From a phage: DNA of 39,474 bases. The notes under the pieces are model-generated. The model was not told the origin of the DNA. It worked only from the letters and a program-made list of their open reading frames with translations, and did no database searches. This document shows positions 17,409-36,412 of this stretch, piece after piece; the stretch's first letter is position 1, and each line of letters starts with the position of its first letter. The DNA lies in the sequence record PZ618369.1, one strand, 5' to 3'. The position numbers and the translations under genes were made by a program.

Positions 17409-18270
17409 GAAGAAGAAGATAGCTCTTGTTCTTGATGGTGACTATCTGGTCTTCTCTTCTATGGCTGCTGCCGAGGACGAGACAGATTGGGGCGATGACA
17501 TCTGGACCCTTATCTGCGACCACGAGAAGGCTCGCCGTATACTTGAGAACACCATCGCTGAAATCGTTAAGAAGCGCAAGGCGTGGAAAGACGCTAAGAT
17601 TGTGATGTGCTTTACTGACGATAATAACTGGCGTAAGGACGTGCTTCCTACCTATAAGGCCAACCGTAAAGGTTCTCGCAAGCCTGTAGGTTACAAGAAG
17701 TTCGTAGCCGAAGTGATGGCTGACCAACGGTTCAACAGCTTCCTTCGTCCTACGCTTGAGGGTGATGACTGTATGGGTATCATCGGGACCCGACCTCAGA
17801 TTGTCGGATGTGACCATGCGGTTCTGGTGTCCTGTGACAAGGACTTCAAGACCATCCCGAACTGTGAGTTCTTCTGGTTAACAACTGGTGAAATCCTGAG
17901 TCATACGACTGCCGAGGCAGACTACTGGCACATGGAGCAGACCATCAAGGGCGACACTACAGATGGCTACGGTGGTATTCCGGGGATGGGTGAGGACACC
18001 ACTCGTGCGTTCCTTGACGAGCCGTACTACTTCGTGCAGGAGAGCCGTGAGCTTAAGACTGGTAAGAACAAAGGCCAGATTAAGACTGAGTGGAAGAAGT
18101 ATCCTAAGCGTGAAGACATGACGCTGTGGGACTGCATGGTGACTCTGGCTGCTAAAGCTGGGATGACCGAGGAGGAACTTCTGGTCCAAGCTCAGGTAGC
18201 TCGTATTTGTCGAGCATCTGACTATGACCCTAAGTCCAAGGAGGTCATCCTGTGGACACCATCCATGTAA
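17398..18270 (+). CDS. 6: 5'-3' exonuclease (290 aa)
   Basis: CDKDFKTIPNC and TIKGDTTDGYGGIPG match recalled T7 gp6. Confidence 0.93.
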   Translation: MGAEKKKIALVLDGDYLVFSSMAAAEDETDWGDDIWTLICDHEKARRILENTIAEIVKKRKAWKDAKIVMCFTDDNNWRKDVLPTYKANRKGSRKPVGYKKFVAEVMADQRFNSFLRPTLEGDDCMGIIGTRPQIVGCDHAVLVSCDKDFKTIPNCEFFWLTTGEILSHTTAEADYWHMEQTIKGDTTDGYGGIPGMGEDTTRAFLDEPYYFVQESRELKTGKNKGQIKTEWKKYPKREDMTLWDCMVTLAAKAGMTEEELLVQAQVARICRASDYDPKSKEVILWTPSM

Positions 18271-18398
18271 TTTACTGGGTCGGACTTCTGGCCCTTTACT
18301 GCATGTACAAGTGGTTTGGGTCAAACAACCGTCCTAAACACTGAGTCTAACCGATAGTCATATCCTATCAATCCAACAGTCATCCATAGGTGAAACAC

Positions 18399-18418
18399 TA
18401 AACTATCACTATAGGGAC
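18399..18418 (+). promoter_or_regulatory. phage RNAP promoter (phi6.5-type), TAAACTATCACTATAGGGA
   Basis: consensus match, +1 G near 18414. Confidence 0.8.
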
Positions 18419-18480
18419 TTTAGGACCTAAGATATGACTATAAGATAGACTTTAGTCTTAACTTAAAGAGGAGATTCAAG

Positions 18481-18753
18481 ATGGCGATTAATGCTATTGA
18501 AAACGTTGTTAAGCAGTTACAGGAAGAAAGGCTTGATGTCCCGAACATCTCCCAGTCTGCCATCCAGTTCCTGCACGTATTGTTCAACGCAAGCTACGCT
18601 GAGAAGATGGGAGCTATTAGTCTCCTCAAGCAGCAGGGCTACAGCGATGCGTTCATTGCTGGATTCATCAAGGGTCTCCAGTATTGCTCTGACACTCTCG
18701 ACGCTGCGATTGCTATGCGTCGTGAGCTGAAAGATACCGTTCAGTTTGATTAA
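18481..18753 (+). CDS. hypothetical protein at gene 6.5 position (90 aa)
   Basis: ORF track; synteny only. Confidence 0.6.
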   Translation: MAINAIENVVKQLQEERLDVPNISQSAIQFLHVLFNASYAEKMGAISLLKQQGYSDAFIAGFIKGLQYCSDTLDAAIAMRRELKDTVQFD

Positions 18754-33100: not shown

Positions 33101-34045
33101 GGCTTCCTGTCTGACATCGTGGAGCATAGTCTGACTGGCAGTAAGCGTCGGTTCGATGACCGCTGGCTGAAGACCGCTGGTATCTCTGACGAGCAGTGGA
33201 AGGGCATTAAGTCCCTAATCCGTGAGTCAGTGACTCGTGGTCCAGACGGGAAGTACACCATCAAGGATAAGAAGGCGTTCAGTCAGGACCCAAGGGCTAT
33301 GGACTTATGGCGTATGGGTGACACCATCGCTGATGAAACGTTACTCCGGCCCCACAAGCTGTCTAACATGGACGCCAAGGCTTATGGTCCTCTCGCTAAG
33401 ACTGTCCTTCAGTTTAAGAACTTCGTCATCAAGTCCATAAACGGTAGAACCATGCGTACCTTCTATAACGCCACGAAGAACAACCGAGCGATTGACGCTG
33501 CACTATCGACCGTGATGTCTATGGGTCTGGCTGGTATCTACTACATGGCTCAGGCGCACGTCAAGGCTTATGCTATGCAGGATGGTCGAGACCGTGACTA
33601 CCTTAAGCAAGCTCTGGACCCGACGATGATTGGTTATGCGGCTCTGTCTCGTAGTTCACATCTGGGTGGCCCACTCGGGGTAGCTAACATTCTGGGTGGC
33701 ATCGCTGGGTATGAGGACACCAAGATGCTCCGTTCGTCTATCCTACCTCGTTCGCCTACAGAGAAGCCTGAACGTGCCATCTCGTATGGTGCAGCTACAA
33801 GTGGCCCTGTGATGAATGTTGTTGGTAACTTCTTGGAGCAGGTTCCAGCTTTTGGATATGCTGCTAACGTTGGTGCTTCGGCTTACAACTTGGCTGGCTA
33901 CCTCAAGGCTGATACTCGGGTAAACGAGAGAGACTACATGACCGGGATGTATAACACCTTCCGTGAACTGGTTCCGAACGACCCGATTACTCAGAAGTTG
34001 CTACTGGGAACGTTTGAGGAGCAAGGTATCCACATCAAGGACTAA
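30158..34045 (+). CDS. 16: internal virion protein D (ejection protein), 1295 aa, with a non-T7-type N-terminal domain
   Basis: from about residue 200 onward collinear with recalled T7 gp16 (STWFGFGAATEAE, VLPQYYGVITGGSPQNL, RLEARETARN, SPTGMQSGASGK, YGISHTEQF, NSFLEARNLFDSD, LVPNDPITQKLL); first ~190 aa not recognisable as the T7 lytic transglycosylase domain. Confidence 0.92.
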   Translation: MATRGIRNNNPGNIRVSKDQWEGMTGDDGAFVTFDSPESGVRALGKNLLSYGRQGYDSIEKIINRWAPPNENDTQAYIDSVVAATGIPATQSLDLSNPDTLSSLAQAISFHETGSRYNPEVYQKGVARALNGISPKTPPVSANVFDALTEGLKAKPKVALGGNLPTAAGLNIEGQAPEAPNESFGEMFYKATGETMQEREDRSTWFGFGAATEAEVKNSMVGVAIRAGQTEDSLDVIGDVFNPTRWNNHKWTRDELDQIRNAGVLPQYYGVITGGSPQNLTELINLALENQKLDQEKAKAGIGAQLAAGVIGAGVDPLTYVPIAGQVGKGGKLVNKMFTVAAQSGALAGVSEMARTSVAGGDAHVAEAILGGALFGGGMTAIADGLGRALGRNTNEFAGPATRLEARETARNVDGQDLSRLPIQEGEQTFSHQGVKFADVQNEPGSVRLEDGSILIGENPLNPKTRQVFDEVIEPERAAAGVNLGGLTEIGLKLLRSENPEIRGVAADLVRSPTGMQSGASGKIGTTASDVFERLRAVDHRFYNDIDDAVTEALKDPYFQTAFWRDSGAFRQDIYQRVSMAIEDGSGNLKAELTPGELKVYGLLKNQFDAKREMMENPAMFGRPDAKSIFPGSRFKGTYVPHVYSNQMKELYIKELGSPEALQEAIKKSWLTSYASRPEVKKRVDEALLEADPTLTADGLAAAVDKYANDKAYGISHTEQFERSSVMEENINGLVGLENNSFLEARNLFDSDMSIVLPNGQTFSVNNLREWDMDKIVPAYNRRVNGDIAIMAGTGKTTKDMKDLVETLMNKAGDDGKLKGEVSTLRDTLKILTGRARRDGADDAAFATVMRTMTDLSFFAKNAYMGVQNLTEIGGMLARGNVRALLHGVPMFRDLAFRNKKVGASEIKDLHNVIFGKELDDSIRPSKQDVIDRLRSYSDLGRGAATALGTAKYYTGELAVRSPFTKVLNGTTNYLLDAGRQGFLSDIVEHSLTGSKRRFDDRWLKTAGISDEQWKGIKSLIRESVTRGPDGKYTIKDKKAFSQDPRAMDLWRMGDTIADETLLRPHKLSNMDAKAYGPLAKTVLQFKNFVIKSINGRTMRTFYNATKNNRAIDAALSTVMSMGLAGIYYMAQAHVKAYAMQDGRDRDYLKQALDPTMIGYAALSRSSHLGGPLGVANILGGIAGYEDTKMLRSSILPRSPTEKPERAISYGAATSGPVMNVVGNFLEQVPAFGYAANVGASAYNLAGYLKADTRVNERDYMTGMYNTFRELVPNDPITQKLLLGTFEEQGIHIKD

Positions 34046-34062
34046 ACTATCACTATAGGAAA
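34043..34062 (+). promoter_or_regulatory. phage RNAP promoter (phi17-type), TAAACTATCACTATAGGA
   Basis: consensus match, +1 G near 34058; leader contains hairpin GGAGAC...GTCTCC. Confidence 0.75.
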
Positions 34063-34108
34063 CGGAGACGCTACCATAGGTCTCCATTTAAATCACAAAG
34101 GAGGCATA

Positions 34109-36295
34109 ATGTCCACGATTACACAATTCCCTGCAGGAAACACTCAGTACAGGATTGAGTTCGACTACCTATCCAGAACGTTTGTTGTTGTTACGCTGGT
34201 GAATAGCTCTAACCCTACCCTGAACCGTGTACTGGAAGTTGGTCGAGATTACCGATTCCTTAATCCAACGATGATTGAGATGTTGGTTGACCAATCAGGT
34301 TTCGACATCGTTCGTATTCACCGTCAGACTGGAACTGACTTAGTGGTAGACTTCAGAAATGGCTCAGTGTTGACAGCCAGTGACCTGACCAATGCAGAGC
34401 TTCAGGCTATCCATATTGCAGAAGAGGGCAGAGACCAAACGGTTGACTTAGCGAAGGAATATGCTGATGCTGCTGGTACCTCTGCCGGCAACGCTAAGGA
34501 TAGCGAGGACGAAGCACGACGAATCGCTGAGGATATCAAGGCATCTGGTCGAATTGGCTATATTACCCGTCGCTCCTTCGAGAAAGGCTTCAACGTTATA
34601 ACATGGAACGAGGTACTGCTATGGGAAGAGGATGGTGAGTATTACCGTTGGGATGGTACGCTTCCAAAGAACGTTCCTGCTGGTTCAACTCCTGAAACTT
34701 CCGGTGGGATTGGGGTAGGTGCGTGGGTTCTCGTAGGCGATGCTTCACTTCGTATCGCACTAGCTTCTGAAGTAGGGGCATCAATGGTGTCCCGTAACGG
34801 CTCACCCCTAGGCAGAATCATTCGTGCATCACTCTTCGAATACCTTACCGAATCAGATCAGCGAGCATTACTTACTACTTCTGGAGCAGTAGTTGCAGCG
34901 GATTATGCGTTAAAAGCAGCTATAGCTGCTGGAGTTATGGTCCTTGATATACCACGGAACCTAGGGATTATTGAACTTGGTAGAGATCCAGCGACGCTTC
35001 CATTGGGGTTCTCGCTTATAGGATGGGGCTGCCGTCGACCTTATACTGTATCAGATGACAGTAGCTTCCTTAATTGCGGGGTAGTTATCCGCGTAGCAGC
35101 TGGGGCAAGTTTTCCTTTTTATTCAACTGGTCGTCATGTGTTCCGGGATATTGTTTTTGACGGGCGGGATAAAACAACGTATCTTTTTTATTCCACAGAT
35201 AGGTATGCTGAGTTCAACGGTACTCGACTAGAGGGGTGCGGAATTTACCGTTTTGCTATTGGTATTGGTTGGAATAAGGGAGGATCAGCAAGATACATCA
35301 CAACAGTGAAAGCACACTTTTGTTCCCTATCTGGAAATGGGGACGCAGTTAAAAATTTAATAGACTCTATGATGATTGGTTGCACAATCAATGCCAATGA
35401 CCGAGGCGTAGCTCTTGTCGGCGGGGCAAATAGTAACTTTTTCGGAGGATGCCGGAACGAATGGAACGCTGGTGATAACTGGTATGCGCATGAATCAATA
35501 GAAAACCAGATTTCAGGTGAACTGTGCGACAGGGCTGGGCGAGGCGGGGTAGTTGCTGGCAAGGATTCGTCATGGATTGTAACCGGAGTTGTCGTCGCTC
35601 GCAGTGGTGCTAATCAACCAATGAATGATAACTACTCAGCAAACTTTGTTATTATTGATAACGGTAAAATCGTAATCTCTGGGGTGAGAACCAGAAACGG
35701 AGCTAACGAGTGGGGTCAGGGTGGGACAAATTCTCCATCGTTTAACGTATCGGTTCTCGGTTCTGGTAATGGGACACTCCTGGTATCTGGAAGTGATATG
35801 ACCGGTTTTGTTACTTCGGTAATTAACCAGAAGGCTCCTACATTAAATAAAGCTATAACCGGAAATCTCGGTATGGATGATGATGTAAATGTTGGAATGT
35901 CTCAGGTTATTAAAGGAAGACGGATTATTGGTTCACAGTCATCGGGTAGATTGCAAGACACTGTGGGAGCAACGTTATCATTCACTAAGCCCAATATTGC
36001 GCAAGATTTATATGCTACATACGTCACCAGAGCCATATTGATTGAGTGTAGAATTGGCAATACTGCACAAGGTGATTATATAAAAATACCTATAGGGGTA
36101 AGGCACGAAAACAATTTCTATCTTGATGTCATTACCAGTGGAATTGTCGCAAGCTCTGGAAGGATTGGTCTTTCAGGAACTGGGGTTACTGTTAGCTTAT
36201 CTATTGATAGTTCAACAGGTGACATCTCAGTTACGTTAACTAGCGTTGATGGGTTGGTGAGAGATGTTAATGTCTCTTTACTGCCATCAATTTAA
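34109..36295 (+). CDS. 17: tail fibre/tailspike: T7 gp17-like N-terminal adaptor fused to a beta-helix-like C-terminal domain (putative depolymerase)
   Basis: N-terminal ~150 aa resemble recalled T7 gp17 ([37 protein letters not shown]); the remainder is Gly/Asn/Ser/Val-rich with repetitive short strands and has visibly lower GC. Confidence 0.88.
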
Positions 36296-36412
36296 GAGTG
36301 AGAACGAAAGTCGAAACAGAACTGTGGTTGTGGAGGTAGAGGTTGACTACACGCTGACCAACGCATGTAATAACTTTGGGTCACGGACGACCCGCTTTAA
36401 ACTGGAGGTTTT

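Follow-up and report, generated by a model that had tools for sequence, protein, structure and literature searches.

Gene 17 of this T7-like phage, a Kayfunavirus, encodes a mosaic tailspike of an ordinary kind, in which a native tail anchor is joined to a foreign β-helix module, a predicted depolymerase whose substrate is most likely a Klebsiella-type group-1 capsule, K25-like at a best guess. We give this joint reading a probability of about 0.85. The gene lies in a window of 39,474 nucleotides (the whole stretch of DNA analysed, record PZ618369.1), and it can be divided as follows.

34109..36295, plus strand: gene 17, chimeric tailspike of 728 aa, stop codon included, from the ORF list and matching the annotated SP7 and SEA1f genes
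34136..34450, plus strand: T7 gp17-type tail-attachment (anchor) domain, aa 10-114, native backbone (Pfam PF03906, E 8.8e-16)
34565..34741, plus strand: Tail_spike_N (TSP1/Gp66-type), aa 153-211, native backbone (Pfam PF18668, E 5.4e-20)
34733..34789, plus strand: linker V-G-D-A-S-L-R...S-E-V-G-A-S-M-V, aa 209-227, the 5' recombination joint, placed by the switch in the nucleotide alignment
34748..36325, plus strand: cassette acquired horizontally, aa 214 to the stop plus 3' flank (backbone break, foreign matches, GC 44.1% against 50.5%, GC3 0.34)
34820..35899, plus strand: predicted N-terminal cap helices and right-handed parallel β-helix body, aa ~238-597
35900..36292, plus strand: predicted C-terminal β-sandwich domain, aa ~598-728, the most AT-rich part (~40% GC)
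36296..36324, plus strand: 29-nt scar made up of the RBS and first-codon stub of a small donor-side ORF, from comparison with donor lineages

The first ~213 residues are native Kayfunavirus sequence, in which the gp17-type domain would plug the spike into the tail and is followed by Tail_spike_N and the GDAxLR linker; by analogy with T7, each tail would carry six spike trimers. The anchor scores 58.4 bits against a Pfam cut-off of 25.2, and aa 6-116 is the sole stretch that aligns to the T7 gp17 structures 7boz and 8dsp; the T7-like N-terminus reported in the first-pass annotation is real. Structure 9vvr_A aligns almost identically to aa 1-226. The ~580 residues that follow had been treated as a single domain with a foreign part starting at 34560 (residue 151), but this overlooked the conserved Kayfunavirus Tail_spike_N domain at aa 153-211, which scores 71.7 bits against a cut-off of 25, is of the CBA120 TSP1/G7C gp66 type and matches the N-terminal regions of CBA120 TSP1, TSP3 and TSP4. 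Nucleotides 1-640 of the gene, which contain this domain, are common to ~170 phage records at 93-96% identity, and the compositional and phylogenetic change is found instead at nt 34748 (aa 214). Gene 17 shares with T7 gp17 both the tail-attachment domain and the gene position; however, in T7 gp17 that domain is followed by a shaft of coiled coil and a small tip that is not an enzyme, whereas here Tail_spike_N and the predicted depolymerase module take their place. Downstream of the gene, the ORF list gives a holin, the small terminase, Rz and the large terminase, without a second spike gene, and a promoter and terminator scan around gene 17 returned nothing exceeding shuffled expectation.

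To what fold does the remainder of the protein belong? A full-length model built from 21 sequences, all ≥60% identical, was unusable (pLDDT 45), and the fold was therefore taken from a monomer model of aa 228-728 whose alignment included divergent branches. This model and both fold searches return β-helix proteins, and the central region of the module is predicted to be a right-handed parallel β-helix, as had been proposed from the sequence. The predicted C-terminal β-sandwich (pLDDT 60-84) aligns with that of 7xy1_A, which the module matches by profile with E 1.6e-199; the 'pouf' class is defined by a C-terminal domain with β-sheets parallel to the helix sheets. 7XY1 is a trimer (PMC12295037). 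No Pfam profile matches the module at E ≤ 0.01, Beta_helix PF13229 and Pect-lyase_RHGA_epim PF12708 included, and the β-helix assignment is therefore drawn from the model together with the homology to 7XY1; among 37 aligned relatives, 16 match PF13229 and 9 match PF12708. The Gly/Asn/Ser/Val enrichment described earlier is confirmed, these four residues making up 37.4% of aa 151-728 and 37.7% of aa 228-728 compared with 25.5% in the other 25 long ORFs, and the two peptides quoted as examples of repeated short strands are present at aa 423-448 and aa 495-525. The chance that the C-terminal region is instead a T7-type fibre, with a coiled-coil shaft and small tip domain, is vanishingly small: the N-terminal homology to T7 gp17 speaks for it, but T7 gp17 beyond residue 116 has no sequence or fold match in gene 17, and the model and both fold searches led us to reject the idea, since they show a β-helix and neither shaft nor tip.

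Homology to the backbone of Kayfunavirus CLB_P1 ends at 34747 and restarts at 36326, which leaves a gap at 34748-36325 in the comparison of domain boundaries with related phages. In nucleotide alignment, the window tracks CLB_P1 as far as the GDAxLR codons and from there tracks SP5M, SBP, VLCpiS10a and an E. coli prophage. SP5M matches the window at 34643-36322 with 91.4% nucleotide identity (a match that starts within Tail_spike_N and runs 27 nt beyond the stop), SBP at 34775-36324 (88.9%), VLCpiS10a at 34764-36324 (75.5%) and the prophage at 34786-36324 (74.3%), and all four foreign lineages have a common 3' end at 36322-36324. The GDAxLR motif is found in all lineages compared, and the crossover would have occurred inside it. 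At the other end, the donor lineages have a small ORF 3' of the spike gene: VLCpiS10a and the E. coli prophage keep it whole, at 59-62 aa, and the copies in SBP and SP5M have decayed. In the scar carried by the window the ATG of this ORF has become ACG, and homology to the donor lineages ends at 36324. The sole match of this small ORF is a PHROG of unknown function. On account of the backbone breaks at both ends, the matches in unrelated phages, the foreign codon usage and the 29-nt donor stub, sequence comparison supports the earlier proposal that the C-terminal module was acquired horizontally, and the DNA from the linker to 29 nt beyond the stop was most probably imported by recombination from a phage gene pool of lower GC.

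The AT-richness noted by eye is borne out by comparison of windows: GC of 34749-36295 is 44.2%, against 50.8 ± 1.3% in equal-sized windows elsewhere (z = -5.1), and it is the lowest among 1395 windows. GC is not uniform across the gene but declines gradually along it towards the 3' end, being lowest over the last 700 nt (~40%). Might the low GC reflect only the amino acid composition of a β-helix, or local selection, in a C-terminal part that is native? Tailspike genes are often AT-rich, and the native N-terminal part also has a somewhat low GC3 of 0.455. However, GC3 in the cassette falls by 22 points from the 0.564 ± 0.043 of other genes (minimum among them 0.476) while GC2 is above average, so the drop is one of codon usage and not of amino acid content. 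The sharp break in backbone homology at both ends, the recurrence of the cassette at 75-91% nucleotide identity in unrelated phage families, the different C-termini of the ~170 records that share the anchor, and the donor-ORF stub all argue in the same direction and make a native origin highly improbable. In SP5M, the GC of the module approximates that of its flanks (43.8 against 43.6), whereas in Kayfunavirus, SBP and the prophage the module lies 5-6 points under its flanks; the SP5M lineage is by composition the best-fitting candidate donor.

Although 171 phage records match gene 17, the whole gene is present in only two of them. These are Escherichia phage vB_EcoP_SP7 (MT682707), at 97.3% nucleotide identity and annotated 'tailspike protein', and Klebsiella phage SEA1f (OR287805), at 97.0% and annotated 'tailspike protein with depolymerase domain'. 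Their modules are 96% identical in amino acids to that of the window, and in both the gene sits between internal virion protein D and the holin, as here; the differences are a few percent of sequence divergence and the hosts, E. coli in one case and K. pneumoniae in the other. The cassette recurs in an N4-like podovirus, a myovirus, two VLCpiS-series Klebsiella phages and prophages of E. coli and Klebsiella, and the module is joined to at least 6 different N-termini. The podovirus is Escherichia phage vB_EcoP_SP5M (Gamaleyavirus), which has a wholly different virion and N-terminal attachment and is without the T7-type anchor, yet it shares both the module and an isolation host with SP7: these two unrelated phages were isolated on one ETEC strain, SP36 (PMC7471389).

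The module belongs to the family of Kp9 gp42, PhiK64-1 S2-2 and FBKp24 gp300 ('classical, pouf-like'; DepoCatalog Class 1B). By tblastn, it is 35% identical to PhiK64-1 S2-2 over 96% coverage and 34% identical to vB_KpM_FBKp24 gp300 (YP_010298937) over 97% coverage, with E values of 1e-57 to 1e-65; identity rises to ~39% in the β-helix body, and the predicted class is the same. Among relatives with an experimentally established substrate, these two stand closest; both, however, belong to jumbo myoviruses that carry arrays of several spikes, and their N-termini differ from that of gene 17. Alignment of 48 representatives (23-79% identity) leaves only three invariant acidic positions, which we regard as candidate catalytic residues.

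35363..35530, plus strand: span with the three invariant acidic residues, a candidate catalytic row
35363-35365, plus strand: D419, invariant acidic
35459-35461, plus strand: E451, invariant acidic
35528-35530, plus strand: D474, invariant acidic

The same three residues are invariant in A4, and their spacings of 32 and 23 residues would correspond to approximately one rung each. In the mechanism that we propose, a trimeric spike would bind a host surface polysaccharide and cut it endolytically through conserved acidic residues, for which these three are the candidates, and the virion could thereby bore its way down to the outer membrane. That the β-helix is a non-catalytic adhesin, binding polysaccharide without cleaving it, is improbable. 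It would fit with the lack of a direct Pfam glycosidase or lyase match for the module, and Kp9 gp42 proved inactive against K2 capsule, which, however, is not the polysaccharide it degrades (bioRxiv 10.1101/2024.05.19.594906). Against an adhesin stands the invariance of the three acidic residues down to 23% identity, together with the halos produced by recombinant S2-2, KP24gp300, 184_43, FKANgp232 and KLEO13gp10 (PMC13385381). The enzymatic, host-range-determining role first proposed for the module is thus in keeping with its validated homologues S2-2 and KP24gp300 and with the host shared by SP7 and SP5M, catalysis by gene 17 itself being predicted by extension from those homologues.

Which polysaccharide would be the substrate? 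S2-2 and KP24gp300 are K25 capsule depolymerases, validated as recombinant proteins, and the experimentally typed members of the family all degrade capsule: K25, KL111 and K22/K37 (PMC13385381). In a neighbor-joining tree, SF_KL25, K25PH129C1 and S2-2/gp300 bracket the clade that contains the module, at bootstrap values of 84-100. Our best guess is a shared K25 specificity, a bracketing argument based on two experimentally typed distant relatives and two phage names. A K39-named phage falls in the same wider clade, which indicates that specificity switches do occur there. The KL111-specific type A tailspike Kp9 gp42/KP192 tspA192 (PDB 7XY1, 7Y1C) is more distant, at 26-30% identity to the module and on a separate branch of the tree, and through its T4gp10-like branching domain it docks a further spike, tspB, whereas gene 17 is not followed by a second spike gene. 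The host serotype range mentioned in the first-pass annotation would most likely be one of capsule (K) type and not of O type.

Why might one module serve phages of both genera? The substrate would be a Klebsiella-type group-1 capsule that occurs in Klebsiella pneumoniae and in some E. coli, and for that reason the module probably sets host range in phages of both. A more far-reaching version of this proposal is that the module recognizes a K25-like group-1 capsule of K. pneumoniae and E. coli with a true cross-genus range, that the cassette and its small companion ORF move between a temperate phage that is widespread and at least 6 phage architectures, and that GDAxLR is a universal splice site; taken in all its parts, it is a tentative proposal that we would hold at somewhat less than even odds. 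If true, hosts with K25-like capsules could include porcine ETEC and carbapenem-resistant clinical isolates with Klebsiella-type K loci. Tailspikes built as mosaics, with β-helix depolymerase modules that can be exchanged, are a well-known textbook feature of phages, and because near-identical genes have already been annotated as tailspike or depolymerase, general understanding is unchanged. The practical value is modest but real: the exact boundaries (34748-36325) and the natural GDAxLR splice site are useful for host-range engineering in T7-like scaffolds, the analysis connects an uncharacterized clade with depolymerases whose K25 or KL111 specificity is experimentally established, and the finding of one module in phages of both genera matters for the treatment, by phage or by enzyme, of E. 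coli with Klebsiella-type capsules.

The genotypes of lysogens carrying a prophage spike 76% identical to the module bear on the choice between capsule and O-antigen. The E. coli lysogens number 67; in six that were sampled, the K locus was K-X in four and K-Y in two, and the lack of a single K locus counts against the capsule-type assignment; the O-antigen cluster was of the O9 family in five and of the O8 family in the sixth. E. coli O9 is equivalent to Klebsiella O3, and E. coli O8 to Klebsiella O5. It is conceivable, though unlikely, that the spike, with the domains and horizontal origin set out above, acts on the polymannose O-antigen common to E. coli and Klebsiella (O9/O3, or O8/O5) and not on a capsule; that equivalence would explain the spread across genera too. 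The predominance of O9 would agree with this, as would the fact that the two K loci are unrelated and one of them truncated, and one lysogen protein is labelled 'E. coli O9,9a:H10' by one source. However, O8 and O9 are mannans of different structure, and both are represented among the lysogens. Group-1 capsules as a rule co-occur with O8/O9, so that the O-type signal is confounded. The prophage version is, moreover, just 76% identical to the module of the window, and the uniform capsule activity of the typed family members described above again points away from O-antigen. A K25-like group-1 capsule is therefore favored as receptor over the O9/O3 mannan, and in line with this, lysogens account for 25 of the 60 sampled K-X genomes, against 0.66 expected.

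How much of the tailspike gene of this phage is native to its own lineage? The window belongs to a Kayfunavirus (Autographiviridae, Studiervirinae), and its first 25 kb are about 91-95% identical at the nucleotide level to many members of that genus (SEA1f 94.7%, P762 93.5%). The spike lies at the gene 17 position of a T7-like phage, with a 1295-aa internal virion protein on one side and holin, small terminase, Rz and large terminase on the other. The reading of gene 17 as a tailspike with a swapped beta-helix is correct but ordinary. Modular exchange of beta-helix depolymerase domains is well established, near-identical genes are already annotated as tailspike or depolymerase, a structure has been solved for one family member, and specificities have been measured for others. 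Added here are the exact cassette limits, the splice site in the linker, a 29-nt donor scar, a Tail_spike_N domain, three candidate catalytic residues, and a predicted K25-like substrate with its cross-genus implications.

Features of gene 17 and its 3' border
34109-36295, + strand: gene 17 ORF, 728 aa, containing the whole feature of the first-pass annotation, whose start at 34560 is residue 151 of the protein
34565-34741, + strand: Tail_spike_N domain (PF18668), aa 153-211 (Pfam, 71.7 bits)
36296-36324: 29-nt scar, remnant of a small ORF (its RBS and first codons), with ATG changed to ACG

Homology to T7 gp17 had been confined to roughly the first 150 residues, and this limit to the N-terminus holds: Pfam places Phage_T7_tail at aa 10-114, and the solved T7 gp17 N-termini align to aa 6-116 and to nothing beyond. 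The remainder, however, is not all one module. Residues 153-211 are the overlooked Tail_spike_N domain, which is conserved backbone separate from the AT-rich module (34748-36325, from aa 214), and the domain boundary at about aa 150 was therefore misplaced. In CBA120 and G7C-like phages, Tail_spike_N docks additional spikes; downstream of gene 17 the window genome has no second spike gene. The locus of the related CLB_P1 is split between two genes, a short gp17 of 325 aa and gp17.1 of 430 aa. The native part of gene 17 (34109-34747) has a GC3 of 0.455, below every other long gene (mean 0.564, minimum 0.476), and GC falls to 44.7-46% around 34000-34400, from which the anchor region may itself have been exchanged among phages.

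To model the fold, AlphaFold2 was run on aa 228-728 with an alignment deepened by divergent branches, which had been recruited with a reconstructed segment of Kp9 gp42 and with a profile built from distant members. The model (pLDDT 84.1, exceeding 90 over most of residues 238-527; pTM 0.72) exhibits a short helical cap, a long series of strands of 3-6 residues each and, at the C-terminus, a beta-sandwich. Its top Foldseek match in the PDB is Kp9 gp42 (7xy1_A; E 1.4e-26, TM 0.80, 511 alignment columns), and a T7 shaft or tip is absent from both the model and the PDB matches, in agreement with the beta-helix that had been proposed from composition. Pfam gives no direct match for the module; among its aligned relatives, 16 of 37 match Beta_helix and 9 of 37 a pectate-lyase-like family. 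The Gly/Asn/Ser/Val enrichment is likewise real (37.4% for aa 151-728 vs 25.5% across the remaining 25 long ORFs), and both peptides quoted for it are found in the protein.

The AT-richness noted by eye is also evident, GC not being uniform: 34749-36295 has 44.2% GC against 50.8 +/- 1.3% in equal-sized intervals elsewhere (z = -5.1, the lowest of 1395). The module has a GC3 of 0.34, the other genes averaging 0.564 +/- 0.043 with a minimum of 0.476, and its GC2 exceeds the average; this pattern indicates foreign codon usage rather than a by-product of amino acid content. Further GC dips occur at 501-1000 and 18001-18500 (43.2% and 45.6%). With gene 17 as megablast query, nearly all of 171 phage records match nt 1-640 only, at 93-96%, and the entire gene is common only to SP7 (97.3%) and Klebsiella phage SEA1f (97.0%). 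In local BLAST against fetched loci, homology to Kayfunavirus CLB_P1 stops at 34747 and restarts at 36326, and the cassette has its matches in unrelated phages.

Cassette matches (window coordinates, nucleotide identity) and the associated small ORF
34643-36322: SP5M, N4-like (Gamaleyavirus), 91.4%
34775-36324: SBP, myovirus (Jedunavirus), 88.9%
34764-36324: VLCpiS10a, 60-kb phage, 75.5%
34786-36324: E. coli prophage beside yecD/aspS, 74.3%
Fetched loci L003, 5541-5729, and L005, 16513-16692: small acidic ORF, MEDETELTEPPFETWFR..., directly following the spike gene of VLCpiS10a and of the E. coli prophage

The 5' crossover lies inside the linker motif V-G-D-A-x-L-R...S-x-x-G-A, found in every lineage compared, and the 3' end of the cassette, about 29 nt beyond the stop codon, is common to all foreign lineages. 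VLCpiS10a and the prophage keep the small ORF (59-62 aa) intact, and SBP and SP5M have degraded copies; the ORF matches PHROG 519 alone (unknown function, E about 1e-4) and might encode a spike-associated accessory protein dispensable for virulent phages. Backbone breaks, matches in unrelated phages, foreign GC3 and the scar together bear out the horizontal acquisition suggested in the first-pass annotation, and the Kayfunavirus is identified as recipient by the scar, by its codon usage and by how rarely the module occurs in this genus. Module GC (about 44%) equals that of the flanks in SP5M (43.6%) and is 5-6 points under the flanks in the Kayfunavirus, SBP and the prophage. An N4-like genome of roughly 43% GC is a plausible donor pool.

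Searched exhaustively, 1.84 billion cluster representatives yield a family of modest size (185 members at E <= 1e-3, 54 at E <= 1e-30), in which the module is invariably C-terminal behind N-termini of widely differing length. By tblastn it is present in 100 records of sequenced phages, 94 of them Klebsiella phages, and its carriers are podo-, sipho-, myo- and jumbo viruses. Recombinant S2-2 of PhiK64-1 (35% identity to the module) and gp300 of FBKp24 (YP_010298937; 34%) both degrade K25 capsule. In DepoCatalog they fall, along with enzymes specific for KL111 and for K22/K37/KL111, into the 'Class 1B pouf-like' depolymerases, for which an inter-subunit active site is proposed and in which the C-terminal domain varies more than any other part (PMC13385381); in gene 17 this domain is the most AT-rich part. 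Kp9 gp42 is 98% identical to tspA192 of KP192, whose assignment to KL111 was based on host range and then confirmed with phages carrying swapped spikes (PMC12295037, PMC12692247).

Neighbour-joining on the beta-helix body (375 columns, 200 bootstraps) groups the window with SP7, SEA1f, SP5M and SBP (100%); VLCpiS11a, VLCpiS10a and the prophage join next (100%), and the successive outgroups are AV124 + SF_KL25 (100%), K25PH129C1 (95%), and S2-2 and gp300 with K39PH122C2 (84%); Kp9 gp42 and K22PH164C1 branch outside this clade. Bracketed in this way by K25-associated relatives, the module would have a K25-like capsule as its substrate as a best guess, two of the four brackets being typed from phage names alone, and the K39-named phage within the clade indicates that specificity switches occur. 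AV124 (Escherichia, Mydovirus; locus L023, 700-2379) and SF_KL25 (Klebsiella, Webervirus; locus L020, 340-2379) have unrelated architectures and carry a sister version about 65% identical to that of the window; as one phage of the pair comes from E. coli and the other from Klebsiella, cross-genus sharing recurs in the family. Only eight positions are invariant across 48 representatives of 23-79% identity, and the three acidic ones, D419, E451 and D474, spaced by about one helix rung each, are proposed as a candidate catalytic row. Homology shows the N-terminal anchor to insert the spike into the tail, and the linker joins it to a presumably trimeric beta-helix. From what is known of the family, the beta-helix would bind host capsular polysaccharide and cleave it endolytically, bringing the tail to the outer membrane, with specificity probably located in the helix groove and C-terminal domain.

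SP7 and SP5M, unrelated phages sharing the module, were both isolated on porcine ETEC strain SP36 (PMC7471389), and K. pneumoniae is the host of SEA1f (module 96% identical) and SBP (90%), so the receptor must occur in both genera. Hundreds of contigs from E. coli and K. pneumoniae carry the 76%-identical prophage version, as do 67 of 5426 complete E. coli genomes. The first lysogen studied has a Klebsiella-type group-1 capsule locus, here named K-X, which is present in 126 of the 5426; known lysogens make up 25 of 60 sampled K-X genomes vs 0.66 expected (P about 1e-35, inflated by clonal descent). In two lysogens of other lineages the K locus is of another type, K-Y, which is intact in B18271 but truncated in ST540 (locus L015, 8989-11932; NZ_CP007390.1), where wcaJ is followed directly by gnd and IS1; lacking wzy, glycosyltransferases and wzx, ST540 is probably acapsular. 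Both are O9, and O9/O3 mannan could be the receptor instead of capsule, the lysogen genotypes alone being compatible with either. Yet K-X lysogens have an O8-family cluster in some genomes and an O9-family cluster in others, which counts against one single O-antigen receptor, and mannan is less favoured because every experimentally typed member of the family is a capsule enzyme. Capsule is thus the favoured receptor. The K and O loci lie side by side and are hotspots of recombination, and the lysogens may have acquired their present serotype after lysogeny; Klebsiella-type capsule loci are documented in E. coli lineages (PMC12405470). In lysogen WCHEC035148, manC of the O8-family cluster is frameshifted (locus L008, 12940-14354; NZ_CP029369.1, 1804939-1806353), which may leave the strain without its polymannose O-antigen. 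Among its glycosyltransferases, the K-X locus of the same strain encodes a 'right-handed parallel beta-helix repeat-containing protein' (L008, 4825-5949; NZ_CP029369.1, 1796824-1797948).
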